Positions 1 through 24,187 of a DNA stretch of 64,000 bases are shown here, in pieces. The position numbers and the translations under genes are program-made. Within the stretch, counting starts at the first letter, position 1; every line of letters begins with the position of its first letter. The stretch spans positions 7,916 through 71,915 of the forward strand of contig CAVZGM010000003.1 in assembly GCA_963774925.1 (NCBI GenBank). Reading direction: 5' to 3'. The stretch is from an uncultured Chloroflexia bacterium. GTDB lineage: Bacteria; Chloroflexota; Anaerolineae; Anaerolineales; Anaerolineaceae. The notes under the pieces are model-generated. The model saw nothing but the letters and a program-made list of their open reading frames with translations, had not been told where the DNA came from and did not search any database.

Positions 1-2
1 GC

Positions 3-1560: not shown

Positions 1561-1645
1561 AAGGCGCTGTTTTATCAGCGCCGTTGCTTCGTTGCCGCGA
1601 GCAATTTTCTTTTCTAACTCATAGATGAGTGCTTCTCAGTTGCTG

Positions 1646-4082: not shown

Positions 4083-4096
4083 CACAATATATAGTG
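4083..4096. promoter_or_regulatory. Candidate NrdR box upstream of nrdJ
   Basis: cacaatatatagtg is a near-palindrome resembling the acaCwAtATaTwgtgt NrdR consensus, about 100 bp upstream of the nrdJ 5' remnant. Only one box was found. Confidence 0.2.
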
Positions 4097-4277
4097 CTGT
4101 CAAGCATTTTTTTCAAAAAAAGTTACAGCAATCGTTTTTATTGACACAGAACGGCATTTATCAGAGAATCCCTTAAGTAATATAAACAATGTAAGGCGAA
4201 AGTCAAGCGAAAATTACTTTCTATTCTCTTTCTCGTATAATAAATAGATGTATTATAAAAGTTGAAAGGATTGCCGG

Positions 4278-6007: not shown

Positions 6008-6186
6008 AAAACCGGGTTTAACAAATAGTAAATCTTCCCTACTAATTCCGGGGGATATCTGTTATAAATAACATATTAAAGATTTCTGCTTCAGGCAACG
6101 CGACGTTTTGCGGGCTTGTAAAATGAGTTTTTAAATGGATTTTTAAACATCATTGGAAATTCCTAAGACGGGAGTATATTTGTATT

Positions 6187-6699: not shown

Positions 6700-6795
6700 T
6701 TTACCTGACAGTTAGCGGATTGTCGCTTGCTTATAAAAATGTCCACGCTTGTTTTTCTGATGGGTTCTATCCCGCTTTTCTAAAGGCATAAAAAA

Positions 6796-6821
6796 CGGGA
6801 GGTTGAATTCTCAACCTCCCG
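6796..6821. terminator. Bidirectional hairpin between the convergent HEAT and porin genes
   Basis: Perfect palindrome cgggaggttgaattctcaacctcccg flanked by A-run and T-run. Confidence 0.6.
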
Positions 6822-6843
6822 GAATTTTTCTATAGCCGGAATT

Positions 6844-7975: not shown

Positions 7976-8300
7976 CGTCTCTCTCCTTTCATTTTCCTGT
8001 TATAACTTGGTTTGTTTTTTCTCTTTTATGCTATTTATAAACTTCGGAAAAAGTCGCCCTTGATCGCTTTTCCCGCTTTTCACATTCAGTCAGCACACAA
8101 ACCTGTTCATACATTTTGTGGCTATTAAGCCCCTGTATGTATACCGTGTCAACTATTTTTGTAAAATATTTGTAATTTTTTTTGAAAAACCTATTTGTGC
8201 ATATATACTATATAAAGTTATTATATTTAAATATTCCATTTACCCCGCTTTTTCTCTCACTTATCCTCTTCCGCGCTTTTTATGAATTTTAAACCATTTA

Positions 8301-9299: not shown

Positions 9300-9724
9300 A
9301 TGTCCCAGTCAATGCCACGCTCTTTCAGCATCTGGTAATACAATCCGAGGTGTTGCCATTTATCAACGCCATTTGGCTTTTCCTCATTTGGTCCCAAATG
9401 CCACTTTCCGATGTATGCCGTGTTGTAGCCTACCTCTTTTAGTCTCGATAGAAATGTCTCCCTTCCGCGATCAAGTTTTGGTGATATCCCATTGAAATCC
9501 TCGACATTTACTATCACTTTGTGCTCATGCGGATACTGACCGGTAAGAATTGATCCCCGCGCCGGCGAGCATAATGGATTGCAGGTATATGCATTGGTAA
9601 ATCGTACCCCTTCATTTGCTATGGCATCGAGATTTGGTGTCTTGACAAGTCCGGCATTCGCGCCGAATGAATCCCATCTGTGCTGGTCGGTCAGGAAGAT
9701 CAATAAATTTTTTCGTCTAACCAT
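9191..9724 (-). CDS. Sulfatase, N-terminal piece with C-x-P-x-R motif
   Basis: LLIFLTDQHR...TCNPLCSPARGSILTG formylglycine signature. Confidence 0.85.
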   Translation of the reverse strand: MVRRKNLLIFLTDQHRWDSFGANAGLVKTPNLDAIANEGVRFTNAYTCNPLCSPARGSILTGQYPHEHKVIVNVEDFNGISPKLDRGRETFLSRLKEVGYNTAYIGKWHLGPNEEKPNGVDKWQHLGLYYQMLKERGIDWDMWKEDKKTMTGPMRPSSGNCLYPKNLRRRRGSQIRQ

Positions 9725-9753
9725 GATGAAAACTCTCCTAACTGGAACAGATA

Positions 9754-10101
9754 TTACACAATAGGTGCAAATTTTCTAAGAATATCTTTATCTATTATCC
9801 TCCGGCTTAAAATTGCGAATGCAAAAACTTCCCGAATTTGACAACGATCAATTATACTTCTTTTTGTTAGCTCAGTCAGCGATATCCTATTCGAACTTCG
9901 AATCCTTGAAAGTCGGGGAGTTATATAAATTGGCATGCACAGTTTAATAGCATCATTGAACAAACACTGTGCACGAACTGATATCTTTACGAAAAAGTCA
10001 TTCCGGGATTTGATTCGTTTTTCTCTGTAAAAGATACATCCCATCAAGTTTCTGGCAACTCGCAAAGCAATGGCATAACTGTTGCTAAATGGGAAAAACA
10101 T
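9754..10101 (-). CDS. Hypothetical small basic protein upstream of the sulfatase; may be spurious
   Basis: Only an open frame of 115 aa. K/R/I-rich, no recognisable motif. Confidence 0.25.
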   Translation of the reverse strand: MFFPFSNSYAIALRVARNLMGCIFYREKRIKSRNDFFVKISVRAQCLFNDAIKLCMPIYITPRLSRIRSSNRISLTELTKRSIIDRCQIREVFAFAILSRRIIDKDILRKFAPIV

Positions 10102-10307
10102 GAATAAGCATATTTCGCAAACGGCTGATAGTCAGCGATTCAAAATGTTTATTTATCCAAGAATGTGCACCACAGACCGTTTGTATGTGGAAGATTATCG
10201 GATCACGAAGTCCATATCACTTCCATATGATTACGACCGTGGGTGCACAAGGTATCGAGCAGAACTATAAGGAACAAAACAGTAAACAACCGGGAAAGGA
10301 TGGATGA

Positions 10308-12470
10308 ATGATGAGAGTACTAAGTATGATATTGTTATGTTTTTGCCTTACAGCATGGTCTATTGCTTATGCACAGGAAGATTCTACTGATTCAACAATG
10401 GAATCTGAAAAAAAGGAGAATGTTGCTTCACTCGATAGCGAGAAAATTCCTGAAATAGTAATTAAAAAGAAAAGAATGGAGGACGTAAGTCGCAACGTGC
10501 CAAATACAAAGTCAGTCATATCCTCTCGACAGGCAGAAAACATCCAGACTTCTCGAACACTACCCGAAGCTTTGAAAGAAACAACATCAGTAATGATTCA
10601 GAAGACTTCTAATGGTCAGGGGTCACCGTACATACGGGGTTTTACCGGTTTTAGAACCTTGCTTCTTATAGATGGGATACGTCTCAATAATTCAGTCTTT
10701 CGCGAGGGTCCGAACCAGTACTGGAATACAGTTGATCTTTTTACTGCCGACCATATGGAGGTGTTTAAGGGTCCATGCTCGGTTCTCTATGGTTCTGACG
10801 CAATAGGGGGCACAGTAAACGTCTTCACAAAAGATTGGAATCCTTTTGCAGAAGAGAGTGCATGGGGAGGAAGATTCTATTTCAGAGGGGCAAGTGCAGA
10901 AGAATCGTTAATAGGAAGAAGTGAGTTTGGAGGTAACATAGATAAACTTGGGATTCTTGCCGGATTGACCTTCAAAGATTTTGGCGACATACAAGCTGGC
11001 GGCGACCTTGGCGAGTTGCCAAAAACAGGTTATGACGAAAGGGACGGCGACCTTAAGCTTTTTTATGCTTTATCACCGGACAGCGAATTGTTATTTGCTT
11101 ATCAGAATGTAGAAATTGACGATGCATGGCGTACCCATTCAACTATCTTCAGTAAAAGTTGGGAAGGCACATCTGTTGGAACTGATAAGGAGCGAATCCT
11201 CGACCAAGACAGAGAATTGACATATCTTCAATATCACTCGCGCAACATGGATAGCTTCATTGATTCAATGATTTTAAGCCTTTCATATCAGACTCAGGAG
11301 GAGACCCAGCATCGTGTGCGCAAGGATGACCGAAGTGACAACTCCGGTTTTGATGTGGGGACAACAGGTTTGTCGGCTCAATTTGATAGCTCAAGTCCCA
11401 TAGGGAAACTAACATACGGCACAGAATATTACCGTGATAATATAGACTCCTTTACTGACAATTTCAATCCGGATGGTTCTTTCAAAGGGAGCGAAATACA
11501 GGGTCCGGTCGCCGATGATTCAGAATACAGTATATTTGGAACTTATATTCAGGATCAGATAACCATCACCGACGATCTCGATATCTTCTTGGGATTGCGT
11601 TATACTTTTGCATCGGCAGATGCAGAAAAAATCAAAGATCCTATTACCGGAGATCAGTTTTCATTTGAAGATGATTGGGACAATTTCGTGGGCAGTGCAC
11701 GTTTCGTTCAAAAGCTTGATGATGGGGATCATTGGAGACTATTCGCCGGCATCTCTCAAGGTTTCAGAGCGCCAAACCTTTCCGATCTTACCAGACTTGA
11801 TACTGCCCGAACGAACGAGATTGAAACACCTTCGACTGATCTTGAGCCGGAGCAATTCGTTTCTTATGAGATTGGTCTAAATGCTATGCACCCAAAATGG
11901 TCAGGAGAGATGTCTTATTATTACACAGACATCAATGATATGATAAATCGAACTCCGACCGGTAGAATCATTGACGGTGATAATGAAGTGACTAAGGAGA
12001 ATACCGGTGATGGTTATATACATGGCATTGAAGTATCTGCCAACCGACAGATATATACCAAATTCTCCGTTTTCGGAAGTCTTGCATGGCAGGATGGCGA
12101 AGTTGAAGATTATCCGACTTCTGAACGCGTCCTTGTCGAAGAACCTATTAGCCGTCTTATGCCTCTCTCAGGTAACATAGGAGTCAGATGGAATGATTTC
12201 GAAAAGAATTACTGGATTGAAACTTTCTGCACTATAGCTGATGAACAGGATGACCTTTCGGCAGCCGATAAAGAAGATACAAGCAGAATTCCCCCGGGAG
12301 GAACACCAGGATATACCGTTGCCACAATCAGGGGTGGATGGGATATCCGGCGCAACTTGACCGTTTCCGCCGCGATAGAAAATATTACCGATGAAGCATA
12401 TCGCATACATGGCTCGGGTCAAAATGAGCCTGGAAGAAATTTCATTCTCTCTCTCGACTGGAGATTCTAA
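10308..12470 (+). CDS. TonB-dependent outer-membrane receptor
   Basis: Signal peptide, plug motifs (GSPYIRGF, DGIRLN, VLYGSDAIGGTVNV) and C-terminal ...LSLDWRF. Intact 720 aa. Confidence 0.9.
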   Translation: MMRVLSMILLCFCLTAWSIAYAQEDSTDSTMESEKKENVASLDSEKIPEIVIKKKRMEDVSRNVPNTKSVISSRQAENIQTSRTLPEALKETTSVMIQKTSNGQGSPYIRGFTGFRTLLLIDGIRLNNSVFREGPNQYWNTVDLFTADHMEVFKGPCSVLYGSDAIGGTVNVFTKDWNPFAEESAWGGRFYFRGASAEESLIGRSEFGGNIDKLGILAGLTFKDFGDIQAGGDLGELPKTGYDERDGDLKLFYALSPDSELLFAYQNVEIDDAWRTHSTIFSKSWEGTSVGTDKERILDQDRELTYLQYHSRNMDSFIDSMILSLSYQTQEETQHRVRKDDRSDNSGFDVGTTGLSAQFDSSSPIGKLTYGTEYYRDNIDSFTDNFNPDGSFKGSEIQGPVADDSEYSIFGTYIQDQITITDDLDIFLGLRYTFASADAEKIKDPITGDQFSFEDDWDNFVGSARFVQKLDDGDHWRLFAGISQGFRAPNLSDLTRLDTARTNEIETPSTDLEPEQFVSYEIGLNAMHPKWSGEMSYYYTDINDMINRTPTGRIIDGDNEVTKENTGDGYIHGIEVSANRQIYTKFSVFGSLAWQDGEVEDYPTSERVLVEEPISRLMPLSGNIGVRWNDFEKNYWIETFCTIADEQDDLSAADKEDTSRIPPGGTPGYTVATIRGGWDIRRNLTVSAAIENITDEAYRIHGSGQNEPGRNFILSLDWRF

Positions 12471-12492
12471 CAGGCAATCTGAAGCAGAAAAA

Positions 12493-12525
12493 AGCAACCT
12501 TTCGGCATCGAAAGGTTGCTTTTTC
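12493..12525. terminator. Rho-independent terminator between the receptor gene and the convergent gene remnant
   Basis: agcaacctttcg-gcat-cgaaaggttgct 12-bp stem with flanking A and T runs. Confidence 0.7.
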
Positions 12526-12535
12526 ATTTTGAGAT

Positions 12536-12795
12536 CTATTTATAATCCTCGTAACCCTGATTTAGCGCAAGGAGTGCATATGTGGTCACAAGTACTTTGT
12601 CCGTTTCAAACCAGCGGTCGGATTCATTAATCCAGTAACCCTCTTTGTTTTGGCATTCGAGAAGTGTCTGTGCGAGTTCCCTATACCAGTCGTGCTTGAC
12701 GCCCTTTTCATCTTTTAAAATTTTCTCGCCATAAGCCGCAAGCGCCTTTGCCATCGTCTGGTAACTATAAAAAAGTCCTTGCCGTTTCCGGTCAG
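12536..12795 (-). pseudogene. C-terminal remnant of a prenyltransferase/squalene-oxidase-repeat (terpene cyclase-like) protein, N-terminus missing
   Basis: ...GLFYSYQTMAKALAAYGE...QNKEGYWINESDRWFETDKVLVTTYALLALN resembles the last repeats of this family. It forms the tail of chimeric ORF 12536-13297. Confidence 0.5.
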
Positions 12796-13297
12796 GCATG
12801 ATGATCGCCTGGATCTTGGGCGCCATGGAGCCCTTGGCAAAGTGAATGCCTTCCGCCAGGTAGGCTTTGGCTTCGGAAAGGGTCATCTTATCGAGCCATT
12901 TCTGGTTCGGTTTGCCAAAATTGATGGCAATTTTTTCAACAGCGGTCGAAATGATGAACAGGTCCGCGTTGATCAACCTGGCCAGCAGGCTGGATGCGTA
13001 ATCCTTGTCAATCACAGCGGCAGTACCGATGCAGCCGCCTTTGCCGTCATCGATGACGGGGATGCCGCCGCCACCGACCGTGATCACAACCACGCCGGCT
13101 TCGATCAAAGCGTGAACGGATTCGATCTCAACGACTTCCATCGGGATGGGAGAAGCCGACCACACGGCGCCAGCCGCGGCCGGAATCCTCAACGATATTC
13201 CAGCCCATTTCCTTTTCACGCTTCTTGGCTTCCGCTTCATCCATGAACCCGCCGATGGGTTTGGTGGGGTTTTGGAATGCCTTGTCGTTTTTGTCAA
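12796..13297 (-). CDS. arcC: Carbamate kinase, central part, truncated at its C-terminus by the composition junction
   Basis: VVITVGGGGIPV...AVIDKDYASSLLA...FAKGSMAPKIQAI. The last ~30 aa expected for the family are absent and replaced by unrelated sequence. Confidence 0.8.
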
Positions 13298-13655
13298 CCT
13301 TTACCTGGGTAACAACCGTAGCAACGGATTTCTTGATCCCGCGGCGGACCAGTTCGTTTTGCAGGGTTTGCTGGATGGCGTACCCGATTGCGCCCTGGCT
13401 GTCCGCGCCGCAGACATCCAAGGGAACCTCATGCATGCCTTCGTACTTCGCTGCGATTTCCGACCGGCGCAGGATGAACCCGACCTGGGGGCCATTGCCA
13501 TGACCGACCGCCACATCCCAGCCCGCTTCGATCATGTCCGCGATATGCTTGGAGGTTTCTGCCGCGGCGATGTACTGATCCTCAACAGTGACCTTCTTGG
13601 GGTCCAGGATGAGGGAATTGCCGCCTATTGCCACTACTGCCAATTTCTTTGCCAT
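13128..13655 (-). CDS. arcC: Carbamate kinase, N-terminal piece
   Basis: AIGGNSL and GHGNGPQVG motifs. Frame break near 13150-13180 (GRGWRRVV...). Confidence 0.85.
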   Translation of the reverse strand: MAKKLAVVAIGGNSLILDPKKVTVEDQYIAAAETSKHIADMIEAGWDVAVGHGNGPQVGFILRRSEIAAKYEGMHEVPLDVCGADSQGAIGYAIQQTLQNELVRRGIKKSVATVVTQVKVDKNDKAFQNPTKPIGGFMDEAEAKKREKEMGWNIVEDSGRGWRRVVGFSHPDGSR

Positions 13656-13683
13656 ATTTCTATCCTTTACGTTTTTAATAGGT

Positions 13684-14664
13684 TTAGCTCATCGTCAAAG
13701 CCATGACCGCTTCCTGCACGTGCATGCGGTTTTCGGCTTCGTCGTATACCACTGATTGGGGACCATCCATCACACCATCGGTTACTTCGATATTGCGGTC
13801 TGCCGGCAGCGGATGCATGTAGATCGCGTCCGGTTTCGCCAGTTTCATGCGGCGTTCGTCGGTGATCCAGCTCTCGTATTTCTTGATGATCTTCGCGCCT
13901 TCCTCGGGATCCGGGGTATGCACCATCGCGCCCCAGGATTTGGCGTAGATAACGTCCGCGTCCTTGAAAGCCGCGTCCATGTCGTCCATCACCTCAAAGC
14001 CAACGCCGAACTTGCGCGCCTGTTCATGCGCCTGGTCCATGATCTCTGGCATGAGCTTAAACTCTGGCGGGTGCGCCAGCACCACGTCCATGCCGAAGCG
14101 CGGCATCTGCAGGATCAATGATTGCGGAACCGACATCGGCTTCTGATAGGAAGCCGCGTACGCCCAGGAGACCACCATCTTCTTGCGACGTAAGTCCCTG
14201 CCCTTCTTCTCGACAATGGTCATCAGGTCAGCCAGGCACTGGAATGGATGGTATACATCGCATTGCATATTGAGCACCGGTACGCGCGAAGCCTTGGCGA
14301 CTTCGTTGAGATACCCATTACCCACGCCCCAATCCACGTGACGGATGGAAATGCCGTCGAAATAACGCCCGAAGATCTCTCCAATCTCCTTTGGGGTATC
14401 CCCATGCGAGATTTGGGTGGTGCGCGATTCAATAAACGCCGCGTGCCCGCCCAGGTGTGCCATGCCAGCCTCAAAAGACCCGCGCGTGCGGGTACTGCTG
14501 AAGAAGAACAACATCGCCAGCACCTTGTCCCGCAAATATGGGGTCAGCTCATTCAAGGCACGCTTCCGTTTCAGGTCGAATGCCACGTCCAGGACGGTTT
14601 CGACCTCTTCCTTCGAGAAGTCAAGGTCTCCGATCAGGTCACGTCCATGTAAAAATGTTTGCAT
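13684..14664 (-). CDS. YgeW-like carbamoyltransferase (ATC/OTC superfamily)
   Basis: SSTRTR, LNMQCDVYHPFQCLADL, KKMVVSWAYAASYQKPMSVPQS...RFGMDVVLAHP and MHPLPADR. The middle segments match my recollection of E. coli YgeW nearly motif for motif. Confidence 0.85.
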   Translation of the reverse strand: MQTFLHGRDLIGDLDFSKEEVETVLDVAFDLKRKRALNELTPYLRDKVLAMLFFFSSTRTRGSFEAGMAHLGGHAAFIESRTTQISHGDTPKEIGEIFGRYFDGISIRHVDWGVGNGYLNEVAKASRVPVLNMQCDVYHPFQCLADLMTIVEKKGRDLRRKKMVVSWAYAASYQKPMSVPQSLILQMPRFGMDVVLAHPPEFKLMPEIMDQAHEQARKFGVGFEVMDDMDAAFKDADVIYAKSWGAMVHTPDPEEGAKIIKKYESWITDERRMKLAKPDAIYMHPLPADRNIEVTDGVMDGPQSVVYDEAENRMHVQEAVMALTMS

Positions 14665-14676
14665 ACTTCCTCCAAT

Positions 14677-15627
14677 TTATTCCATTTTTCCAAGCACAAG
14701 CGCGAGCAGAGCCATGCGCATGACAACACCGTTGAAAGCCTCCTGCCAGTAACGCGACCAGCGGGTGATGTCCACATCGGTCGGGATCTCATCCATTCGC
14801 GGCAGCGAGTGCAGCAGGATCGCATCTGATTTGGCTTTCGTGGAGAGCAGTTCCCGGGTGATCTTGTAATTGTCCGGGGTCATACCGTGGTCGCCAGCTT
14901 CCTGGCGGCTTTTCGTGTAATCCGGTTGAACCACAGGCTCCACCAGGATGACATCCGCCTTCGCGATGACCTGTTCCACATGTTCAGCCTCAGAGAAGTT
15001 CACATTATACCGCTTTAAGTCCTCCTTGAATTCGGGGGTCAGGGACATGTCCGGCGGCGCGACAAAAGTGATCGGGCAGTCGAATTGCGAAAGCGCGTAC
15101 CCCAGCGAGTGCATCGTGCGCATGCGCATGTCGCCCACCGCCAGCCAGGTGAGCCCATCGATCGTTCCCTTTTCGCTCAGCACGGTATACAGGTCGGTCA
15201 GGATCTGGGTCGGGTGCTCCCCCCAGCCGTCACCGCCGTTGATCACCGGGATCGAAGCCCATTTGGCGGCTTCGTGTGGCGCGCCCTGCTGGAAATGGCG
15301 CATGACAATCACATCGCCATAGTACTCCAGCATCTTCACGGTGTCCTTGATCGATTCCTGGTAGAAATCCCCCGCCCGAGTCATCTTGGCGTCCGCGAAA
15401 CCTGTCACGTGTCCGCCAAGGCGGTGCATGGCTGCCTCATGCGCCAGGCGCGTGCGGGTGCTGGGCTGGTAGAAAGCAGTCACCAGGGTTTTTTCTGCCA
15501 ACAGGTCTGTATTCCTGCGGCTCTTGGCGATCGGAGCCATTTCATCGCAGACCTCAAATACATGAAAGAACTCTTCGCGTTCAAAATCCTTTAGAGAAAG
15601 GATATCTTTTCCTGCAAAGCTGCGCAT
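14677..15627 (-). CDS. Aspartate-carbamoyltransferase-like protein with atypical second-substrate motifs
   Basis: STRTR, MRH, GEHPTQ and HSLPR motifs. ATG at 15627 is preceded by an aggagg RBS (the ORF track starts further upstream at 15669). Confidence 0.8.
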   Translation of the reverse strand: MRSFAGKDILSLKDFEREEFFHVFEVCDEMAPIAKSRRNTDLLAEKTLVTAFYQPSTRTRLAHEAAMHRLGGHVTGFADAKMTRAGDFYQESIKDTVKMLEYYGDVIVMRHFQQGAPHEAAKWASIPVINGGDGWGEHPTQILTDLYTVLSEKGTIDGLTWLAVGDMRMRTMHSLGYALSQFDCPITFVAPPDMSLTPEFKEDLKRYNVNFSEAEHVEQVIAKADVILVEPVVQPDYTKSRQEAGDHGMTPDNYKITRELLSTKAKSDAILLHSLPRMDEIPTDVDITRWSRYWQEAFNGVVMRMALLALVLGKME

Positions 15628-15706
15628 TTGATTCCTCCTATGATCTGAATGAAAAACTGCAGTGCCCAACCATTGATCCAGGAACCTCCTTCGGCTTGCC
15701 TAAGGC

Positions 15707-16462
15707 TTATCGATCACTTGCTGCCACCTTCCGGACCACATGAAAACGGAAATAGCCCGGAAGAAAATAACTCAATGAAAAATCAACGATCTTCCCCAGG
15801 TCGCTGTACAACCTGGCGGAAAACATCAGCAGAACGTCTCCTCGTTGGATCTCGAGCATCTTGGCGATATCCGCTGGCGCGGCAACCGCGTGAATATCGG
15901 TGAAGGATTTCAACAAGGTGGGAGTTCCCCTCTTCTGAATGAAGTCCAGCACAGACCCATTGAATCCGGCTTTCAGGTCATCCTGCGAAAGGGCATCCGG
16001 CGGGAGAATATCCACCAGGTAAGCCACCGGGCGCTTGTCCGCGTAGATTACTCTGGAGACCTTCACCAGCCTGGAATTCTCCTCGACCTGCAGCTTTTCA
16101 GACAACTCGGGGGTGGTGAGCATATCGGCGATTTCCAGCGCCCCCATCGAAACCCCCAGCCCGATGCGGTGCGCCAGCCGTTCAATGCTCTCCAGCACCT
16201 CCAGCCCGCTCTCGATCACCTTGGATTGCGGGAGCACGAAGGTGCCGATCCCCTGCCTTCTGCGGATGAGCCCCTGGGCTTCAAAGGTGCGCATGCCCTC
16301 GCGAAGGGTTGCGCGGGAGACCCCCAGCGTTTTTGCCAGAGCGGGTTCCGAGGGCAGTTTTTCCCCGGTCGGTGTGCTTGCGATAAGCTGCGCCAATTCA
16401 CCCTGCAGCCTCTGAAAGGGATGTTGCCCATTGGTCTTGATTAAACCTAAATCAGTACTCAT
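15707..16462 (-). CDS. GntR-family (HutC/UTRA-type) transcriptional regulator
   Basis: N-terminal w[44 protein letters not shown] plus an UTRA-like C-terminal half. Confidence 0.85.
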
Positions 16463-16471
16463 TGATAAACG

Positions 16472-17605
16472 TTAATCCTCGATCGTTTCTAATAATGGGA
16501 TGAAATCAAAGCGGTTCACATCCACCAGCCCCAGGTCGGAGATGCGCAATTCCGGGATCACCACCAGACCCATCAGGCTGACCTGCATGTTGGGGTTGTG
16601 GAGCTTGCAGCCGCATTTTTCGTATGCCTTCAGCAATTCGCGCGATAGTTCCGCCACCACCACCGCCGGTTCAGTGGACATGATCCCGCCAATCTGCAGG
16701 CGGACTTCCGCCAGTACCTTGCCTTGCGATACCACCACCTGACCCCCGCCGATGGCGGCCAGGTGGTTGGCTGCGAATGCCATATCCTCATCGTCCGTTC
16801 CAACCACCACCAGTTGGTGGCTGTCATGTGCCATCGTAGTGGCAACCGCGCAAGACACGTTGAACCCGAATCCCTGCACCAGCCCCATCTGGATCCTGCC
16901 GGTGCTTTGATGGCGTTCGACCAGTGCGATCTTTGCCAGGTCACGCGCCAGCTCCTGCCGAACCTGCCCGTCCTGCACCACGAGCTCGAGGACAAGATGC
17001 CGGGTTGGCGCCTGGTTTTCAATGACCCCGATCACGTGGGCGCGGACCTTCCTGGCAGTTCCAGCCGGAATCACCAAGTCAGCCGCGGTCAGCGTATGGC
17101 TGAGGTGAACAGAATCCAATGCCCACAACGGGTACTCGCGTTTGGGCAGGTCAACCAGCACCTCGCCCTTGCGCACCACTTCCTTGCCCTTTGCGATCAC
17201 CACCTCGGGTCGAAAATCATTCAGATCCTCGACGATCAGAATATCTCCGAAGCGCCCCGGGGCGATCAAGCCAATCTCCCTCGAGACACCAAAATGTTCG
17301 GCGGTGTTGATCGTCGACATCTGGATGGCGGTCATCGGGTCAAGCCCCAGCGAAATGGCGTGCCGCACCGCCCTGTCCATGTGCCCTTCATATACAAGCG
17401 TCTCCGCCTGCAGGTCATCGGTGCACAGCAGGAAGCTCCGCGGCGACAACCCCTGCTCCATCACCGCCTTCACCTGCTCTTCCACGTCCAGCCAGGCGGA
17501 CCCGTAGCGCATCATTACCTTCATCCCCTGCCGGGCGCGCATGACCGCGTCGCCGGTGGCGCGTGCCCTCGTGGTCATCCTGCGGACCGCCGACCACGTA
17601 TCCAT
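16472..17605 (-). CDS. ade: Adenine deaminase-like amidohydrolase, C-terminal piece
   Basis: Long C-terminal domain typical of adenine deaminases (...HDSHQLVVVGTDD..., ...GGGQVVV...). Frame break near 17560-17590. Confidence 0.85.
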   Translation of the reverse strand: MDTWSAVRRMTTRARATGDAVMRARQGMKVMMRYGSAWLDVEEQVKAVMEQGLSPRSFLLCTDDLQAETLVYEGHMDRAVRHAISLGLDPMTAIQMSTINTAEHFGVSREIGLIAPGRFGDILIVEDLNDFRPEVVIAKGKEVVRKGEVLVDLPKREYPLWALDSVHLSHTLTAADLVIPAGTARKVRAHVIGVIENQAPTRHLVLELVVQDGQVRQELARDLAKIALVERHQSTGRIQMGLVQGFGFNVSCAVATTMAHDSHQLVVVGTDDEDMAFAANHLAAIGGGQVVVSQGKVLAEVRLQIGGIMSTEPAVVVAELSRELLKAYEKCGCKLHNPNMQVSLMGLVVIPELRISDLGLVDVNRFDFIPLLETIED

Positions 17606-18062
17606 GGAATGGCAGTCCGAGGTCAGGCGAGGCGTAATGCCCGCCGATGACCTTGCCGGCGCGGCGCGTGGCGCTCATTTCGGCGTGCACCTTGTCATCC
17701 CCGCTGTACACGCCCGGGAAGTTCATCATCTCGCCCAGCCCGATGATGCCGGGCCAGGTCAGGGCTTCCGAAATTTCCGTGGGTCCCAGGATCGCGCCGG
17801 GAGTCTCCAGCCCGGGCGCGGAAGGGACGCAGGAAGGCACCTGCACGAACACATGGTTGGGTTGCAGCGCGGCGTCATCCACCATCAGCCGCACCCCGCG
17901 CAGCCCGAAGACGTTGGCGATCTCATGCGGGTCGATGAACATGGCGGTGGTGCCGTGCGGCAGCGCCGCGCGCACGAACTCGGTCACCGTCACCAGCCCG
18001 GATTCCACGTGCATGTGCCCGTCCAGCAGCCCGGGCACCAGGTAACTTGCCCTGCGCGTCAA
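17415..18062 (-). CDS. ade: Adenine deaminase-like amidohydrolase, middle piece
   Basis: YLVPGLLDGHMHVESG metal-binding HxH motif and FIDPHEIANV. Confidence 0.85.
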   Translation of the reverse strand: MTRRASYLVPGLLDGHMHVESGLVTVTEFVRAALPHGTTAMFIDPHEIANVFGLRGVRLMVDDAALQPNHVFVQVPSCVPSAPGLETPGAILGPTEISEALTWPGIIGLGEMMNFPGVYSGDDKVHAEMSATRRAGKVIGGHYASPDLGLPFHGYVVGGPQDDHEGTRHRRRGHARPAGDEGNDALRVRLAGRGRAGEGGDGAGVVAAELPAVHR

Positions 18063-18276
18063 TCACAATGGTCTTCTTGCCAATGGTATGGGAAGCGTCC
18101 GGTCCAACGTAGGCGATGCGCTTGGCGCGCATGGCGATATCAATATTCGGGATGATTTCCCCGGTCTGCACGCACACCCACTTGCCGTTGCGCACCACCA
18201 GGTGCGCCGGCAGCCTGCCCATGGCGCAATCCACCAGTTCCCGCGCGTTTTGGAGCCAGAAGGAGTCCATCCCCAT
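17923..18276 (-). CDS. ade: Adenine deaminase-like amidohydrolase, N-terminal piece
   Basis: N-terminal beta-sandwich part (...LVVRNGKWVCVQTGEIIPNIDIA...VIDAQGK). Frame break near 18040-18060. Confidence 0.7.
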   Translation of the reverse strand: MGMDSFWLQNARELVDCAMGRLPAHLVVRNGKWVCVQTGEIIPNIDIAMRAKRIAYVGPDASHTIGKKTIVIDAQGKLPGARAAGRAHARGIRAGDGDRVRARGAAARHHRHVHRPA

Positions 18277-18285
18277 GCTGTGTTC

Positions 18286-18657
18286 CTATCCCGCAGCCAG
18301 CCGCTGCGCAGCCTTGTTATGCAGTTCGATATGCCGCTTCAGGTCGATGCCCAGAAGCACCCCGTCGCGCACAACAGCTTTGCCGTGCACGTAATTGTTG
18401 TCCACCTTGGGGGGATTGCAGAAGACCAGCGCCGAGACCGGGTCGTGCAGCGCGCCCGCCAGGTCGAGCTGGTTCAGGTTGATGGTGATGAAATCGGCGC
18501 ATTTCCCGGGCTCGAGCGAACCGATGTCCGTCCTGCCCAGCACCGCCGCGCCGCCGCGGGTGGCGAGTTCCAGCGCCTGCCTGCCCGTCATAATTTCCCC
18601 GCCGGTCGAGGAAAGCGACGCGCCCTCCAGCCCGGCTTTCAGCCGCGCCAGCAGCAT
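18286..18657 (-). CDS. 8-oxoguanine-deaminase/SsnA-like amidohydrolase, C-terminal piece
   Basis: ...ELATRGGAAVLGR..IGSLEPGKCADFI... Continues 18639-19667 after a break near 18640-18660. Confidence 0.8.
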   Translation of the reverse strand: MLLARLKAGLEGASLSSTGGEIMTGRQALELATRGGAAVLGRTDIGSLEPGKCADFITINLNQLDLAGALHDPVSALVFCNPPKVDNNYVHGKAVVRDGVLLGIDLKRHIELHNKAAQRLAAG

Positions 18658-19667
18658 CGCCTGCCGGCTTCAGCCAGCAGGTGCGAGCCGTCGTTGCTCG
18701 CCGAGCCGTCCACCCCCAGCCCCACCTTGACGCCGTGCCGCAGGAAGGAGAGTATGGGCGCCGCGCCTGAAGCGAGCCGCATGTTCGACGAGGGGCAGTG
18801 CGCCACCCCGCAGCCTTCGCGGGCATACACCCCGATCTCCTCTTCGTTGACGTGCACCGAGTGGGCGAACCAGACGTCCTGCCCCACCCAGTCCAGCGAC
18901 TGCATGTAAGCCACCGGCGCGTGCCCGAACTTCTGGATGCAGAATTCCTCTTCATCCTGGGTCTCCGCCAGGTGCGTGTGCAAATGCACGCCGTACTTCC
19001 TGGCGAGCTTTGCGCTTTCCTTCATCAACTCCCCGGTGACGCTGAACGGCGAACAGGGCGCCAGGACGATCTGGACCATCGAGCCGGATTTTGGATCATG
19101 GTATTTCCGGATCAGCCGCTCGCTGTCCTTGAGGATGTCCTCCTCGCGGTCCACCACGCTGTCGGGCGGCAGTCCGCCCTGGCTCTCCCCCAGGCTCATC
19201 GACCCGCGCGATGCGTGCAGCCGCACGCCGATCGCCTTCGCGGCTTCGATCTCGTCATCCAGCAAGGAACCGTTCGGGAAGAGGTAAAGATGGTCTGAAG
19301 CAGTGGTGCAGCCGGAAAGCGCGAGCTCGCTCAGCGCGGTCTGCGTTGAAATGCGGATGTCCTCGGGGGTCATGCGCGCCCAGATGGGATAGAGCGTTTT
19401 CAGCCAGTTGAACAGGTTCGCGTTTTGCGCCGCCGGGATCACCCGCGTGAGCGTCTGGTAGAAATGGTGGTGCGTGTTCACTAGCCCGGGCAGGAGGATC
19501 TGCCCGCTCGCGTCCAGCACCTCGTCCGCCTCGGCGGGCAGCGCCGCGGTCGCCCCGACCTGCTCGATGAACCCGTCGCGAACAAAAAGACCCCCATCCG
19601 GGATCTCCCGGCGGGTGTCATCCATGGTGACCAGCAGTTGCGCGTGCTTGACAAGGAGTGTGCTCAT
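18639..19667 (-). CDS. 8-oxoguanine-deaminase/SsnA-like amidohydrolase, N-terminal piece
   Basis: LLPGLVNTHHHFYQTLTR, HLHTHLAET and VAHCPSSNMRLASG motifs of the guanine/8-oxoguanine/chlorohydrolase amidohydrolase branch. Confidence 0.85.
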   Translation of the reverse strand: MSTLLVKHAQLLVTMDDTRREIPDGGLFVRDGFIEQVGATAALPAEADEVLDASGQILLPGLVNTHHHFYQTLTRVIPAAQNANLFNWLKTLYPIWARMTPEDIRISTQTALSELALSGCTTASDHLYLFPNGSLLDDEIEAAKAIGVRLHASRGSMSLGESQGGLPPDSVVDREEDILKDSERLIRKYHDPKSGSMVQIVLAPCSPFSVTGELMKESAKLARKYGVHLHTHLAETQDEEEFCIQKFGHAPVAYMQSLDWVGQDVWFAHSVHVNEEEIGVYAREGCGVAHCPSSNMRLASGAAPILSFLRHGVKVGLGVDGSASNDGSHLLAEAGRRCCWRG

Positions 19668-19691
19668 AGAGAACCTCAGCAGATAGAGATG

Positions 19692-19708
19692 AACTTGTCT
19701 GACAACTT
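19692..19708. promoter_or_regulatory. 17-bp near-perfect palindrome, candidate operator for the adjacent GntR regulator
   Basis: aacttgtc-t-gacaactt (one mismatch between arms), 25-41 bp upstream of the first gene of the cluster. Confidence 0.3.
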
Positions 19709-19720
19709 ACAGATTTTAGT

Positions 19721-20014
19721 TTACCGGGATTTTCGGGAATTGTCAATTACAGGGCTGACGGTACTCCCCAAATGGTCTTTCAACAGCCAGATGATCGCCC
19801 CATTGATGCGGTAGGCAATCCTTGAGCTGCCCGCTGAGTAATACTTGGTTACAACTTCCTGTGAACCAGTAATCAGTAATTGGCAATTAGGATTCGGGTA
19901 GTAAGTATCAACAAGGTCAATAATGGACTTTACCATGTTTCCATCCCCATCGTAAACGTACACTTCATGTCCGTTCTGTGGTGTTAGGTGTGGGAATTGA
20001 GACCAACTCAGCAT
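19721..20014 (-). pseudogene. Orphan RHS/YD-repeat core fragment
   Basis: YVYDGDGNMV...YYSAGSSRIAYRINGAIIWLLKDHLGST is a typical YD-repeat/RHS shell segment. It has neither the N-terminal shell nor the C-terminal toxin. Confidence 0.6.
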
Positions 20015-20017
20015 TAT

Positions 20018-20668
20018 TCAATGCCCAACTACTATAGAATCCCAAGGAGCTGGTCCTACATACATATCTTTAAGTATTGGATGTCTTGTAAAATATTCAT
20101 CTCTTGTATTTGATGGATGAAAATAAACGATAGTTATCGGATCAGTGTTAGAATTAATCAACAAACCCTCAAAAATTACTTTCAACCCTAATTGCCAATA
20201 AAAGAAAATAATTTTTCCTTCTGTATTTTCGTCTCCTGGTTCTATTACAAAAATTTCATCAGGACAACCATATTTATCAACTAGATTTTGCAGATTAAGA
20301 AAATACTCATTATTATAGATATAAATCTCTTCGACGATATTATCAAAAATCAAAAACGAAAAAAAGTCCCAACTCCAATCTTGAAAAGCAAGTCCATATT
20401 CCTCATAACCATATCTAGAATTCGGTTTACCAACCAGATTAAAAACATCTTCTGCTTGCGTTAGCCCTGGTGTTACACCCATAAAACTTATTTGCCCAGT
20501 ATAAACCGCGTCGGTGACTTCTTTACAGGAATTCATGTATTGATCTGGAGATAAGGTGTTGGTTGGCTGGGGTTTTGATCCCATTTCTACACTAGCACAT
20601 GATGTCATGAGAAACATGATTAATAGAGTTAAAATCATTTTTTGCATTATTTTTTTCCCCATAACCAC
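20018..20668 (-). CDS. Hypothetical lipoprotein encoded on very AT-rich DNA
   Basis: Signal peptide plus lipobox (LLIMFLMTSC). No recognisable domain. Sits immediately upstream of the RHS fragment. Confidence 0.6.
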   Translation of the reverse strand: MVMGKKIMQKMILTLLIMFLMTSCASVEMGSKPQPTNTLSPDQYMNSCKEVTDAVYTGQISFMGVTPGLTQAEDVFNLVGKPNSRYGYEEYGLAFQDWSWDFFSFLIFDNIVEEIYIYNNEYFLNLQNLVDKYGCPDEIFVIEPGDENTEGKIIFFYWQLGLKVIFEGLLINSNTDPITIVYFHPSNTRDEYFTRHPILKDMYVGPAPWDSIVVGH

Positions 20669-20803
20669 AAGATATAATTTGCAGCAAGGGATTGATCTTC
20701 AAATCCAGGATATATCACTCCATTTGAGGATGTGAATATCGCTATTGCCGAAGACATACTTTCTTCAAGTGAATTACCGAACGCATTAGTATCATTCACA
20801 GTT

Positions 20804-21058
20804 TAGTAGGGTGTGTTGCCTGTGCCCTGGCGCGTCTTACCAGCCCTGGAACGATTTTTGTTCCATGGGTGCGCCACGGGAATACCCACCAAAACACTCG
20901 CTCCAAAGGTGACCACGGATGTGAAACATCCCTCCCTCGATAAAATACCTGCACTATTCAGGCATATGGAGATTGTATATCAAATTGGGATTGGTGGGTT
21001 GAAAACCAATTCAACAGCTGAATAAGCGACTCAAATATTCTTGTTTTCAACCTACCCT
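20804..21058 (+). repeat. 255-bp repeat, copy A (MITE-like, starts with a GTAGGGTG head)
   Basis: Aligns base by base with 22554-22810 at a 1750-bp offset with few mismatches. Contains internal hairpins (ggttgaaaac...gttttcaacc). Confidence 0.8.
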
Positions 21059-21070
21059 GCGCATCAGCGC

Positions 21071-21093
21071 GTAGGGTGCGTTACTAACGCACC
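21071..21093 (+). repeat. REP element (GTAG + hairpin)
   Basis: GTAG-ggtgcgtt-act-aacgcacc: perfect 8-bp stem directly after a GTAG tetranucleotide, 30 bp from the RAYT 3' end. Confidence 0.6.
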
Positions 21094-21124
21094 ACCCAAA
21101 CGCACCTCCCAACCCACCCCTTGC

Positions 21125-21650
21125 TCAATCCCACGCCAACCCCTGTAATCTCCCCTCGTTCCCACCAACCCAATCTGCATCATAGATCCCCTCCTTCACA
21201 TACCTTGAGAAACTCGAATACGGCCAATCGATGGCACGCTCGACCAATCCGTGCTTGATCGGATTGTAATAGATATAATCCAAATGGACCTCGAGATCTT
21301 CCTCATTCTCAATTGTGTGCTCCCAAAACCTGCGCTGCCAGATTGCGGCTTCTTTCCGTTTCTGCCGGGAAGCGTTGCGTTCTCCGCCCGGTCCAACCTC
21401 CACCAGGTATCTCCTGGTGAAGCGGGTCTTGATCTCCTTCCAACATGGCATAATTTGCATCCCCCTCAGGCAGCCGCCAGATGCAATGGAGATGGTCGGG
21501 TACCAGGCACACAGCGATGGTCTCGAAGGGGAACCGGTCGGTTACCTCCAACCAAGCCTGACGGAGAATTTTGCGGGATTGTTCGCTGATAAGGATGGGT
21601 TGCCTCTGGTAGGTGACCACGGTGAAAAAGTACGATTCCTCCCTCGACAA
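21125..21650 (-). mobile_element. REP-associated tyrosine transposase (RAYT, IS200-like Y1 HUH), one frame break
   Basis: HUH motif PDHLHCIW and Tyr motif DYIYYNPIKHGLV. Pieces 21309-21650 and 21125-21460 join at about 21440-21460 (GDANYAM/RWKEIKTRF). Confidence 0.8.
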
Positions 21651-21779
21651 GCGACCGGTGATAATTCGGCATATGCTGATTGTATAATAAATTATTCAAC
21701 GAGCACGAGTTTGAAAGTCGGAAATGGAGGAAAGGAAGGAAGGATGAGGACAGGTTTACGAGTGGGGTTGGGTTGAGTG

Positions 21780-21834
21780 GTGCGTTTTCCCATGGCGCAC
21801 AAAACGCGCCAGGGCTCAAGCAACGCACCCTACA
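21780..21834 (-). repeat. REP element, inverted relative to 21071-21093
   Basis: On the minus strand: GTAG-ggtgcgtt-(inner palindrome ccctggcgcg...gcgccatggg)-aacgcacc. Confidence 0.55.
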
Positions 21835-21898
21835 ACTGCCCGCACCCCCGTCAATCAATCCGTTCCATTTGTCTTCTTGCGAACCATCTTTTTCGGCG

Positions 21899-22399
21899 TT
21901 AGCGAAGAATACCAAAAACTTCGAGTAATGGATTAAATTTGGAATTGTCTCTTGTAAACTCTTCACAATAAAGAGTCTCGCGGAAGCAAATGAGTAGATT
22001 ATCACCCGAACGGGAAAGAGTCCATTCCCCACTTTTGAACCTTCGATTCTTCACTAGAATTAGATTTTCGTTTAGAAAAGTGTAATCAAAAAATGAACAA
22101 AACGATTCAATCGGTCTTTTTCGACAATATAAAAGTCGACCGTTTCTAGAGAATTTTACAAATATTTCCTCAAAGTAATTCCCATATATGTCATAGCCAA
22201 TTTGTGTTGCCTGCCATTTTCCAATCATAAACTCACTATGTTCATTTTGCATTAGCGATTCGGTGCAACCTCCACAGGTGAAGCAGAAAACGATAATGAT
22301 TAATAATTGAAGTGAAATTCGTAGTGTGTTAGACGTAGGCTGCGTTCGTTCGATGAACGCACCAACCTCATGTGAAAATCCTGCCCGCATCCCCGCCAA
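21899..22399 (-). CDS. Hypothetical lipoprotein on AT-rich DNA; true start probably internal
   Basis: Lipobox-like ...IIIVFCFTCGGC. No recognisable domain. Confidence 0.5.
   Translation of the reverse strand: MAGMRAGFSHEVGAFIERTQPTSNTLRISLQLLIIIVFCFTCGGCTESLMQNEHSEFMIGKWQATQIGYDIYGNYFEEIFVKFSRNGRLLYCRKRPIESFCSFFDYTFLNENLILVKNRRFKSGEWTLSRSGDNLLICFRETLYCEEFTRDNSKFNPLLEVFGILR
22335..22362 (+). repeat. REP-like element
   Basis: GTAG-gctgcgtt-cgttcgatg-aacgcacc. Confidence 0.45.
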
Positions 22400-22553
22400 T
22401 CAACCCCTCCTCTACCCCTGTTATTTCGACTTATTAAGGATTGTATATCAAATTGGTAATGGTTTTGACTTATTTCCCGCTTCCATCCTGCACCAGGCAT
22501 ATAAAGCATCATAAACCTGGAACTGATGGGAGAGGTTTTCAAGATCCTCAGTA

Positions 22554-22810
22554 TAGTAGGGTGGGGCGCTTGTGCCATGGCGCGTCTTACCAGCCCTGGA
22601 ACGATTTTTGTTCTATGGGTGCGCCACGGGAAAACCCACCAAAACACTCGCTCCAAAGGTGACCACGGATTTTAAACATCCCTCCCTCGATTTAATACCT
22701 GCAATTTTCAGGCATAGAGAGATTGTATATCAAATTGGGATTGGTGGGTTGTAAACCAATTCAACAGCTGAATAAACGACCAAAATATTCTTATTTTCAA
22801 CCCACCCTAC
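22554..22810 (+). repeat. 255-bp repeat, copy B
   Basis: Direct repeat of 20804-21058. Begins tagtagggtg and ends caccctac (inverted GTAGGGTG termini). Confidence 0.8.
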
Positions 22811-22873
22811 CGCTGAGGCTCACCGAGGCATTGTGATAAAATTACCACACCATTCTCAATACTGGAGGGTTAT

Positions 22874-24187
22874 GTGAGCAGGATTTGCGTGATTGGAACT
22901 GGCTACGTGGGACTCGTAACCGGTACTTGCTTTGCCGACCTGGGCAATGAAGTTGTCTGCCTGGATATTGACGAAGAACGGGTGAGAAGCCTGCGGGCTG
23001 GCATCATGCCCATCTATGAACCCGGGCTGGAGCAGCTCGTCAAGCAAAATGTATTAACCAAACGCCTGGTCTTTTCCGGCGATTACATGGAAGCCCTGAA
23101 CGGGGCTGAATACGCTTTCATCGCGGTCGGCACCCCGTCCGGCAACGATGGCGAGGCAGACCTGCGCTATGTGCGCTCCGCCGCTGAAGCAATCGCCGAC
23201 CATGTCACCGATTCCATTCTGGTCATTAACAAATCCACCGTACCGGTCGGCACCGGGGACTGGGTGGCGGACGTCATCAACCGCCGCCGCGGCGGGAACA
23301 AGCTGGCGTTCAGCGTGGTTTCCAACCCCGAGTTCCTGCGCGAAGGCTCGGCCATCAACGATTTCATGAACCCCGACCGGGTCGTGCTTGGCTCCGAAGA
23401 CCGTGAAGCCGCCAACCGCGTCGCCCAGCTCTACCAGCCCCTGCGCTGCACCATCATGGTCACCGACCTGCGCACCGCTGAGATGATCAAGTACGCCTCC
23501 AACGCCTTTCTCGCCACGCGCATCTCCTTCATTAACGAGATCGCCAACATCTGCGAGGAATTAGGCGCGGATGTGCGCGAGGTCGCCATGGGCATGGGTT
23601 ACGACAAGCGCATCGGGCGCGCCTTCCTGGACGCCGGTCTGGGCTGGGGCGGCTCCTGCTTCCCCAAGGATGTGAAAGCCCTGGAGCACATGGCTGTGCT
23701 GCACGGCACCCAGCCGCAGCTGCTGCAGGCGGTCATGGAGATCAACCGCAACCAGCGCCGCCGCGCGGTGATGAAACTGCGCAAAGCGCTCAAGAACCTG
23801 AACGAAAAGACCATCGGCATCCTGGGCATCTCCTTCAAACCGAACACCGATGACATCCGCGACGCGGCCGCCATCGAGATCATCCACCTGTTGCAGAACG
23901 AGGGCGCCCACATCCGCGCCTACGACCCCCAGGCGATGGAAAACGCCGGCAAGGTGCTGAAGAACGTGGAGCTGTGCGAGAACGCCTACCAGGTCGCCGA
24001 AAAAGCCGACGCGCTCATTCTGGCGACCGAGTGGAACGAATTCAAGCAGCTTGACCTCGCTAAAATCAAATCCCTGATGAACGGCGCTATCATCCTCGAC
24101 GGACGCAACCTGTGGGACCCCGAGAACCTGAAGCAGCTCGGCTTCACCTACATGGGCATCGGTCTGGGTCAACTGAACAAGAAATAA
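22874..24187 (+). CDS. ugd: UDP-glucose 6-dehydrogenase
   Basis: GTGYVGL Rossmann motif and catalytic [11 protein letters not shown] start after a ggaggg RBS. Confidence 0.9.

Follow-up and report, generated by a model that had tools for sequence, protein, structure and literature searches.

A 64-kb stretch of a contig from an uncultured Anaerolineae bacterium (CAVZGM010000003.1; the whole stretch is called the window here) carries six co-directional minus-strand genes between 12,799 and ~19,746, which probably make up the 5' portion of an Anaerolineae operon for purine catabolism under repressor control. Three of these genes, encoding two different carbamoyltransferases (ctA and ctB) and a carbamate kinase (CK), would form the ATP-yielding exit of the reductive urate pathway. 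An ATP-yielding anaerobic purine module built on this trio had been suggested in the initial annotation of the window, and it is now supported by the synteny of related loci, by the active-site motifs of the transferases and by the gene context of one relative, locus L059. The operon is best read as a variant of a pathway described in 2025, and its second carbamoyltransferase, which resembles aspartate carbamoyltransferase (ATCase), appears to be its distinctive part.

In digesters, sediments and peat, Anaerolineae rank among the main fermenters. The anaerobic route for uric acid was elucidated as recently as 2025, in work confined to gut bacteria. The presence of the operon in hundreds of environmental Anaerolineae species amounts to an experiment of nature: a second carbamoyltransferase appears to have taken over the hydrolase step of the pathway.

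The reductive urate pathway

The ygeW-ssnA region of E. coli encodes a reductive urate (2,8-dioxopurine) pathway (PMC12507026; bioRxiv 10.1101/2025.04.24.650524). Urate is converted to 2,8-dioxopurine by a xanthine dehydrogenase (XDH) homologue, YgfK dearomatises the product and SsnA opens the ring, and HyuA then opens a hydantoin to yield 2,3-diureidopropionate. YgeW phosphorolyses one ureido group of this compound, with ATP formed via YqeA; YgeY removes the other one by hydrolysis, and YgeX converts diaminopropionate to pyruvate (PMC12507026; bioRxiv 10.1101/2025.04.24.650524). The substrate of YgeW, described as unclear in the initial annotation, is thus now given as 2,3-diureidopropionate (same two studies). 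They are at odds over the ureido group that YgeW takes off, a question still counted as open in a commentary (PMC12990295). Variants are also known: SsnA clusters in Chloroflexota have an F420 luciferase-type reductase instead of YgfK (Li et al., PMC12507026), and C. difficile uses UacY and YgeY as two decarbamoylating enzymes (PMC12507026). The E. coli cluster additionally holds genes for a purine deaminase and transporters (guaD, xanQ, ghxQ and uacT).

Composition of the operon

The genes of the operon, in transcriptional order, and the join that cuts it off in the window are as follows (window positions).

18286..19667, minus strand: AH, amidohydrolase of the 8-oxoguanine deaminase family, ~460 aa; 1-nt deletion near 18666
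16472..18276, minus strand: ADE, adenine deaminase, ~598 aa; 1-nt insertions near 18047 and 17552
15707..16462, minus strand: HutC-subfamily GntR regulator, 251 aa; PF00392 winged helix and PF07702 UTRA effector domain
14677..15627, minus strand: ctA, ATCase-like "pseudo-ATCase", 316 aa; assigned from family scores and motifs
13684..14664, minus strand: ctB, short YgeW-like knotted-type carbamoyltransferase, 326 aa; assigned from residues and motifs of YgeW
12799..13655, minus strand: CK, carbamate kinase, cut short; 1-nt insertion near 13158 and ~33 C-terminal codons lost
12798..12799, no strand: probable chimeric join, with Anaerolineae DNA on the right and low-GC DNA of diderm type on the left, placed from the end of homology, GC and gene content

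The intergenic gaps, from AH through ADE, GntR, ctA and ctB to CK, are 9, 9, 79, 12 and 28 bp, in agreement with the order and spacing first described. An upstream TTG at 15669 would give a 330-aa version of ctA, but it is not the start used in relatives. The gene inventory of the initial annotation also stands; what it had overlooked are the frameshifts in AH, ADE and CK (four indels relative to the intact related locus L001), the promoter and operator, and the continuity of the right flank with relatives.

Comparisons below draw on a context set of 84 related Anaerolineae loci (designated by L-numbers), in which fractions refer to the loci with enough sequence. L001 served as the intact reference for indel calls, and L001 or L003 supplied the orthologue scores.

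ctB, a YgeW-like carbamoyltransferase

ctB is closer to E. coli YgeW (34% identity, 192 bits) than to the ornithine carbamoyltransferase (OTC, or OTCase) ArgI (28%, 129 bits), and it shares with YgeW the specific motifs QCDxxHPxQ, SWAYxxSYxKPxSVPQ and YxKSW. Nine residues have been proposed to bind the second substrate of YgeW: Q98*, D124, Q160, S200, K203, K270, L331, D334 and E344 (PMC4581275). Eight of these (Q98, Q160, S200, K203, K270, L331, D334 and E344) are kept in ctB and are invariant in 59/59 members of its family; the ninth, D124, aligns with a histidine. The gene context is also that of YgeW, in that CK follows ctB in 63/72 loci, and the set of SsnA, HyuA, YgeY and XDH homologues is full in L059 and partial in L056.

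The motifs expected of other carbamoyltransferases are missing. Neither DxxxSMG nor HCLP of OTCases is present (ctB has YAKSWGAM and HPLP), and the OTCase scores fall below their cutoffs (258 vs 306 and 249 vs 281). The 80s-loop insertion of N-acetylornithine carbamoyltransferases (AOTCs), with W77 and E92, is absent as well; the AOTC score is 248 against a cutoff of 288, and there are no arg genes nearby. The initial annotation had called this protein YgeW-like, and given these motifs, the better score to YgeW than to ArgI and the retained YgeW residues, ctB does not look like an OTCase. It resembles a trimmed YgeW in which the 240s-loop insertion and the terminal helices are missing. With its pocket residues conserved, ctB should act as YgeW does, and we propose that it is a 2,3-diureidopropionate carbamoyltransferase.

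In the public records of hundreds of Anaerolineae genomes, ctB is labelled an ornithine or N-acetylornithine carbamoyltransferase and ctA an aspartate carbamoyltransferase. If the assignments made here are correct, this widespread "aspartate carbamoyltransferase"/"ornithine carbamoyltransferase" misannotation would be corrected.

ctA, a pseudo-ATCase

ctA is 37% identical to E. coli PyrB, and its carbamoyl-phosphate site is kept (STRTR, R105 in MRH, and HPTQ), as is R167. However, it reads LVEPVVQPDY in place of the ATCase sequence TRVQKER, so R229 and Q231, which bind the aspartate side chain, are lost. It also has HSLPR instead of HPLPR, and so lacks the HP[LG]P motif. One residue is deleted ahead of R167, and the 80s loop is TRAGDFYQE rather than KKGE. 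Each of these features (LVEPVVQPDY, HSLPR, the deletion and the 80s loop) is conserved at >=95%, as counted in 60 family members. Although ctA passes the ATCase equivalog model TIGR00670 (252 bits, cutoff 237), that model does not discriminate pseudo-ATCases. No pyr genes occur within 10 kb in the 84 loci.

An exhaustive search of 1.84 billion representatives, combined with a neighbour-joining tree, places ctA in a diverse radiation whose members share an xRAGD 80s loop and lack RxQxER, and in which the HxLP motif varies. In the tree this radiation separates from the true ATCases. Within it the Anaerolineae ctA family is a tight clade of its own, with the nearest 50%-identity representatives only 42-51% identical. 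By its motifs, its branching and its non-pyr context, ctA is a pseudo-ATCase in the sense of Barba et al. (PMC4016543). The "ATCase-like" protein of the initial annotation is therefore better called a pseudo-ATCase: it is without R229/Q231 and HPLP, and it falls outside the true ATCases.

Several features recall the pseudo-ATCases of groups 2 and 3, neither of which was ever assigned a function (PMC4016543). As in those groups, STRT and HPTQ are intact, RxQ is lost and the context is non-pyrimidine, and HSLP is the form found in group 3. The pairing of ctA with a YgeW-type transferase in a purine cluster is instead reminiscent of group 2, in which the enzyme of Nocardioides (sp. JS614) adjoins a ygeW homologue, xdhABC and hyuA (PMC4016543). 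At the RxQ position, different alignments of ctA give PVV or VQP, against GX[SC] in group 2 and VXP in group 3 (PMC4016543). Another pseudo-ATCase, Rubrobacter Rxyl_2847, is a ureidoglycine carbamoyltransferase (UGTCase) coupled to carbamate kinase (PMC4016543). Like ctA, it is ATCase-like, and it has been proposed to phosphorolyse one ureido group of a di-ureide of purine catabolism; unlike ctA, it has the signature HPLA plus AIA and belongs to an aerobic uricase/allantoinase pathway with allantoate as the substrate (PMC4016543).

Since R167, which binds the alpha-carboxylate, is kept and the beta-carboxylate binders are lost, ctA probably acts on a 2-ureido (alpha-N) group. Its expected substrate, judged from the pocket, is an alpha-N-carbamoyl amino acid whose side chain is not acidic, and candidates would be 2-ureido-3-aminopropionate or the 2-ureido group of a di-ureide. 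If this is true, it would be the first physiological function for the long-orphan ATCase-like pseudo-ATCase radiation.

Conservation and gene context in relatives

At least 582 genomes hold a ctA relative in a scan of one genome per species. The best 80 of these relatives are 84-93% identical to ctA, and almost all carry the label Anaerolineae, Anaerolineales or Chloroflexota. Anaerolineae metagenome bins supply hundreds of near-identical relatives (ctB 88-96%, ctA 91-100%). Such compact, highly conserved enzymes may be of use in engineered urate-degrading probiotics.

Gene order is retained in relatives, a test that the initial annotation had singled out. ctB comes after ctA in 67/73 loci and CK follows in 63/72, while upstream of ctA the GntR gene is kept in 68/77, ADE in 53/70 and AH in 51/62. 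The arrangement is far beyond chance. The usual order in the 84 loci is folD (in some), AH, ADE, GntR, a YgeY-type M20 hydrolase gene (in 24 loci, preceding ctA), ctA, ctB and CK. CK is followed by a gene for a 677-aa protein in 13 loci, and then by genes for a Bmp-family binding protein, an ATP-binding cassette (ABC) ATPase and two permeases. Past the transporter, two alternatives are seen: either a ThrC-like pyridoxal-phosphate (PLP) enzyme, a family 2 glycosyltransferase (GT2) and a 488-aa PLP enzyme, or a flavin adenine dinucleotide (FAD) subunit and an XDH-like Mo/Fe-S protein. In 11 loci, XDH genes come after the transporter. ADE or AH is missing from some loci (L003, L059).

The upper pathway is found next to the trio in L059. 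There, a single strand encodes an F420-dependent luciferase-like monooxygenase (LLM) family oxidoreductase, a YgeY-family M20 hydrolase, ctA, ctB, CK, SsnA, an XdhB/C fusion, the XDH Mo subunit and a D-hydantoinase. YgeY scores 450 bits (cutoff 321), SsnA 523 (cutoff 444) and the D-hydantoinase 487 (cutoff 393); upstream are a second XDH and a ThrC-like PLP enzyme. The L056 locus is similar. The SsnA, YgeY and HyuA proteins of relatives are 36-40% identical to their E. coli counterparts. The initial annotation had held the cluster in the window to be incomplete, and this is the case: the ring-opening genes missing from the window lie beside the same trio in L059.

Two further loci on other Chloroflexota-type contigs, in which SsnA and a fused XDH are followed by F420_oxidored, F420_ligase, CofD and CofC and then by a luciferase-like reductase (L087:12583-16859 and L088:11538-15909), were noted as well. 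Such a run of F420 biosynthesis genes beside SsnA fits an F420-dependent dearomatisation step.

The conserved 677-aa protein (L071:15604-17637, and 12 other loci, e.g. L022, L031 and L065) has no Pfam or NCBIfam match. Its gene separates CK from the Bmp transporter in some loci and ctA from ctB in others. Genes for FemAB-like proteins, methyltransferases and lysylphosphatidylglycerol (LPG) synthase in variant loci were considered and set aside as envelope genes outside the module.

Promoter and operator

Upstream of AH the window contains the following elements, and with them the unit extends to ~19746.

19741..19746, minus strand: -35 hexamer TTGACA, read from the sequence; the layout recurs in relatives
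19718..19723, minus strand: -10 hexamer TAAACT, 17 nt downstream of the -35 hexamer
19695..19705, no strand: palindromic operator TTGTCAGACAA (O2), an exact match 27 bp upstream of the AH start codon

The combination of TTGACA, a 17-nt spacer and TAAACT or TACACT recurs upstream of AH in most of ~55 related loci. The palindrome, TTGTCWGACAA in general form, has 70 copies in 1.5 Mb of related loci compared to ~1.4 expected, and 65/70 sit upstream of AH, at its promoter. In relatives, one or two copies flank the promoter, one abutting the -35 hexamer and one just after the -10 hexamer. The copy abutting the -35 hexamer, usual in relatives, is absent from the window. A palindrome of this kind is presumably a repressor-type site bound by the operon's own HutC-type GntR protein, which has both the PF00392 winged helix and the C-terminal PF07702 UTRA domain expected of that subfamily and an enriched palindrome at its operon's promoter. 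An identical GntR protein is on record in other samples.

Extra copies of TTGTCWGACAA are found inside the operon in a few loci (L003:9944, L004:4204, L070:9937 and L071:17720). These internal copies stand before ctB, ctA or the Bmp gene, which suggests that some lineages may have internal regulated promoters. No riboswitch was detected by Rfam in the window or in four related loci.

The deaminases and carbamate kinase

The first amidohydrolase had been described as 8-oxoguanine-deaminase- or SsnA-like, and only the former holds. The N-terminal part of AH alone scores 548 bits with the 8-oxoguanine deaminase model NF006055 (cutoff 532), and the L003 orthologue scores 680; with the SsnA model NF005540, scores are 134-139 bits against a cutoff of 444. 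AH is 83% and 74% identical, in two frames, to the intact L001 orthologue, which is itself 31% identical to E. coli GuaD and 26% to SsnA. By these scores AH belongs to the 8-oxoguanine-deaminase family and not to SsnA, with its substrate being a prediction; the true SsnA is a separate gene in L059. The fragments of ADE, which spans three frames in the window, match TIGR01178 (271 and 156 bits) and Adenine_deam_C, and the intact L001 orthologue scores 505 bits with TIGR01178 (cutoff 472.5). The two frames of CK cover positions 2-170 and 166-283 of a 316-position carbamate kinase model (214 and 142 bits), and its counterpart in L001 shares 53% identity with E. coli YqeA.

Proposed pathway

In the proposed model, a sigma-70-type promoter with TTGTCWGACAA, presumably bound by the operon's own GntR protein, would drive expression. 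AH (8-oxoguanine/guanine type) and adenine deaminase would feed oxopurines into the pathway. The XDH, F420-dependent reductase, SsnA and hydantoinase that follow would be encoded elsewhere in this genome type, while being adjacent in some relatives. ctB would convert 2,3-diureidopropionate to mono-ureido-diaminopropionate and carbamoyl phosphate, and ctA would phosphorolyse the remaining ureido group, probably the 2-ureido (alpha-N) group, replacing or supplementing the YgeY hydrolase. CK would convert each carbamoyl phosphate to ATP, NH3 and CO2. The true continuation past the join would encode a Bmp-type ABC importer and then two PLP enzymes that probably dispose of diaminopropionate. The substrates, the roles allotted to ctA and ctB, the pairing of repressor and operator and the upper pathway in this genome are predictions of the model, drawn from family scores, synteny, operator enrichment, active-site residues and the neighbours SsnA, HyuA, YgeY and XDH in relatives.

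Exactly two decarbamoylating enzymes are present in three of the cluster types examined: YgeW and YgeY in E. coli, UacY and YgeY in C. difficile, and a CN_hydrolase and an Amidohydro_3 protein in locus L089. The window-type Anaerolineae operon has ctA and ctB and no hydrolase. Most simply, then, the second ureido group would be phosphorolysed by ctA. Anaerolineae may therefore have a fully phosphorolytic lower branch, in which ctB and ctA each release one ureido group and two ATP are gained per purine ring instead of one; we put this forward tentatively, as a possibility that could well prove wrong. If true, the carbamoyl-phosphate ATP yield of purine fermentation doubles. As ctA seems built for an alpha-N-carbamoyl amino acid, the arrangement would favour cleavage of the 3-ureido group by YgeW-type enzymes, and it would, if confirmed, settle the dispute on the order of ureido cleavage.

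The two PLP enzymes are a ThrC-like protein (~420 aa; L001:17086-18354) and a CysK-like protein (488 aa; L001:19300-20766), which follow the module in many loci. They were at first viewed as unrelated neighbours. That view was dropped after L089, a distant 9.5-Mb genome with hydrolases instead of carbamoyltransferases, showed both next to SsnA, XDH and an F420 LLM enzyme, in a different order (7967-9190 and 4885-6264; 47% and 44% identical). Both resemble YgeX weakly (29% over 127 aa), and it may be that they replace diaminopropionate ammonia-lyase.

A number of observations weigh against the operon being the exit of the reductive urate pathway. None of SsnA, hydantoinase, XDH, the F420 reductase or YgeY is encoded in the 64-kb window. 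SsnA lies beside the ctA-ctB-CK trio only in L056 and L059 among the 84 loci, and the SsnA homologues retrieved shared no contigs with window-type loci. Not even relatives have YgeX (diaminopropionate ammonia-lyase) proper, and the ThrC-like protein scores above a threonine-synthase cutoff, resembles solved threonine synthases and may be just ThrC. The YgeW-like label first given to ctB is supported by motifs and residues, but the protein fails the curated YgeW cutoffs (197 and 188 bits vs 453 and 500 for NF005538 and TIGR03316), and at 326 aa, compared to 396 aa for YgeW, it is without the N- and C-terminal helices and the two-helix 240s-loop insertion. The main weakness is that YgeY, ctA and ctB coexist in 24 loci, making three enzymes for two ureido groups. 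With three decarbamoylating enzymes in these loci, ctA could have another substrate.

That thought leads to the strongest of the alternatives, in which the urate pathway includes ctB and CK but not ctA, a YgeY encoded here or elsewhere hydrolyses the second ureido group, and ctA cleaves a different ureido compound, making a two-substrate ATP module. The substrate of ctA would then be another N-carbamoyl amino acid or an allantoate-like di-ureide. Besides the 24 loci with all three enzymes, the diversity of the pseudo-ATCase radiation and its varied pocket motifs are consistent with this, as is the existence of a pseudo-ATCase that works on allantoate as a ureidoglycine carbamoyltransferase (PMC4016543). 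However, ctA and ctB are adjacent in 67/73 loci, most loci lack YgeY within 10 kb, and there is no allantoinase or uricase context. HSLP and the missing RxQ do not match the UGTCase signature of HPLA plus AIA (PMC4016543), and three of the other cluster types examined have exactly two decarbamoylases (PMC12507026; L089). We consider this alternative unlikely.

It is much less probable that the cluster consists of two unrelated neighbouring units that share no pathway, one a pair for purine salvage or deamination plus its regulator, the other an independent ATP-yielding pair of the citrulline or agmatine type. The 79-bp gap between GntR and ctA and the loci without ADE or AH (L003, L059) could be read in this way, but all genes are co-directional with other gaps of 9-28 bp, and the operator occurs almost only at the AH promoter (65/70 copies). 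The ctB pocket, moreover, matches YgeW and not OTC or putrescine carbamoyltransferase (PTC), and XDH, SsnA and HyuA adjoin the trio in relatives. Least credible of all is an anabolic node with ctA as PyrB, ctB as an ornithine or acetylornithine carbamoyltransferase and CK supplying carbamoyl phosphate to both: public annotations (ATCase and OTCase), the ATCase score of ctA (252 vs 237), the near-cutoff OTC and AOTC scores of ctB (258 vs 306 and 248 vs 288) and the 84-96% identity of both transferases across genera, as housekeeping enzymes would show, are outweighed by the loss of R229/Q231 and HPLP in ctA and of DxxxSMG, HCLP and the AOTC 80s-loop insertion in ctB, by a context of deaminases, a catabolic-type repressor and a purine-type transporter, with XDH, SsnA, HyuA and YgeY in relatives, and by the lack of pyrI, pyrC or arg genes nearby.

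Comparison with known systems

If the Anaerolineae operon does serve the reductive urate pathway, it shares much with the E. coli cluster. In both, a carbamoyltransferase gene is next to a carbamate kinase gene, and a purine deaminase and purine transporters are encoded in the cluster (in the operon of relatives). Relatives carry SsnA, HyuA, YgeY and XDH homologues, and ctB keeps the YgeW substrate residues. The differences are nevertheless considerable. Anaerolineae have two carbamoyltransferases rather than one, YgeY is optional, and ctB falls 70 residues short of YgeW in length. In relatives, two other PLP enzymes may take the place of YgeX, and an F420-type reductase stands in for YgfK. 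The regulator is a HutC-type repressor and not a sigma-54 activator like YgeV, uptake would depend on a Bmp-type ABC importer, and the ring-opening genes lie outside the operon in the window's genome type. The arginine and agmatine deiminase routes, which pair a catabolic OTCase or PTCase with carbamate kinase, are analogous insofar as they also proceed by ureido phosphorolysis followed by substrate-level ATP synthesis; in contrast to those routes, ctB is without OTC or PTC substrate motifs, there is no such deiminase, and the context is that of purines.

State of the sequence

Four single-base indels occur in 3/6 genes (AH, ADE and CK) relative to the intact L001 orthologues, as detected by tblastn and DNA alignment. 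Genes unrelated to the operon, for uvrA (28915-26011), methylmalonyl-CoA mutase (33749-31999) and a sulfatase (9724-8301), are likewise split into two overlapping frames. Single-base indel errors thus appear to run through the whole window, and because unrelated genes are split in the same way, the frameshifts in AH, ADE and CK are attributed to assembly errors. Pseudogene decay of the cluster was rejected on the same grounds.

The initial annotation had placed a junction near 12,800, and it is real. Homology at the DNA level to two relatives, L001 and L003, ends exactly at 12799, ~33 codons before the CK stop codon, and at this point relatives continue past CK with the Bmp-family ABC transporter. 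To the left are a truncated unrelated open reading frame (ORF), a TonB-dependent receptor gene (10308-12470) and the split sulfatase gene. GC content is 0.55-0.69 in the six-gene block, 0.39-0.47 in the DNA to its left and 0.28-0.37 in the stretch to its right. Given the diderm-type DNA beyond 12799, the junction is most likely a chimeric join; positions 1-12798 of the window are probably diderm-type DNA fused mid-gene to the carbamate kinase, making the contig chimeric.

A second chimeric junction near 19,700 was considered and rejected, as the UDP-glucose dehydrogenase gene (22874-24184) and uvrA keep the synteny of relatives. The position of folD in relatives is occupied in the window by a 3.2-kb low-GC insert (0.28-0.5; 19708-22870). 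Within this insert are an RHS/YD-like fragment (19721-20014) and an ORF of 216 aa that matches no family; its stop codon falls inside the -10 box of the operon. The sole Rfam match of the window is a tRNA gene at 35457-35529.

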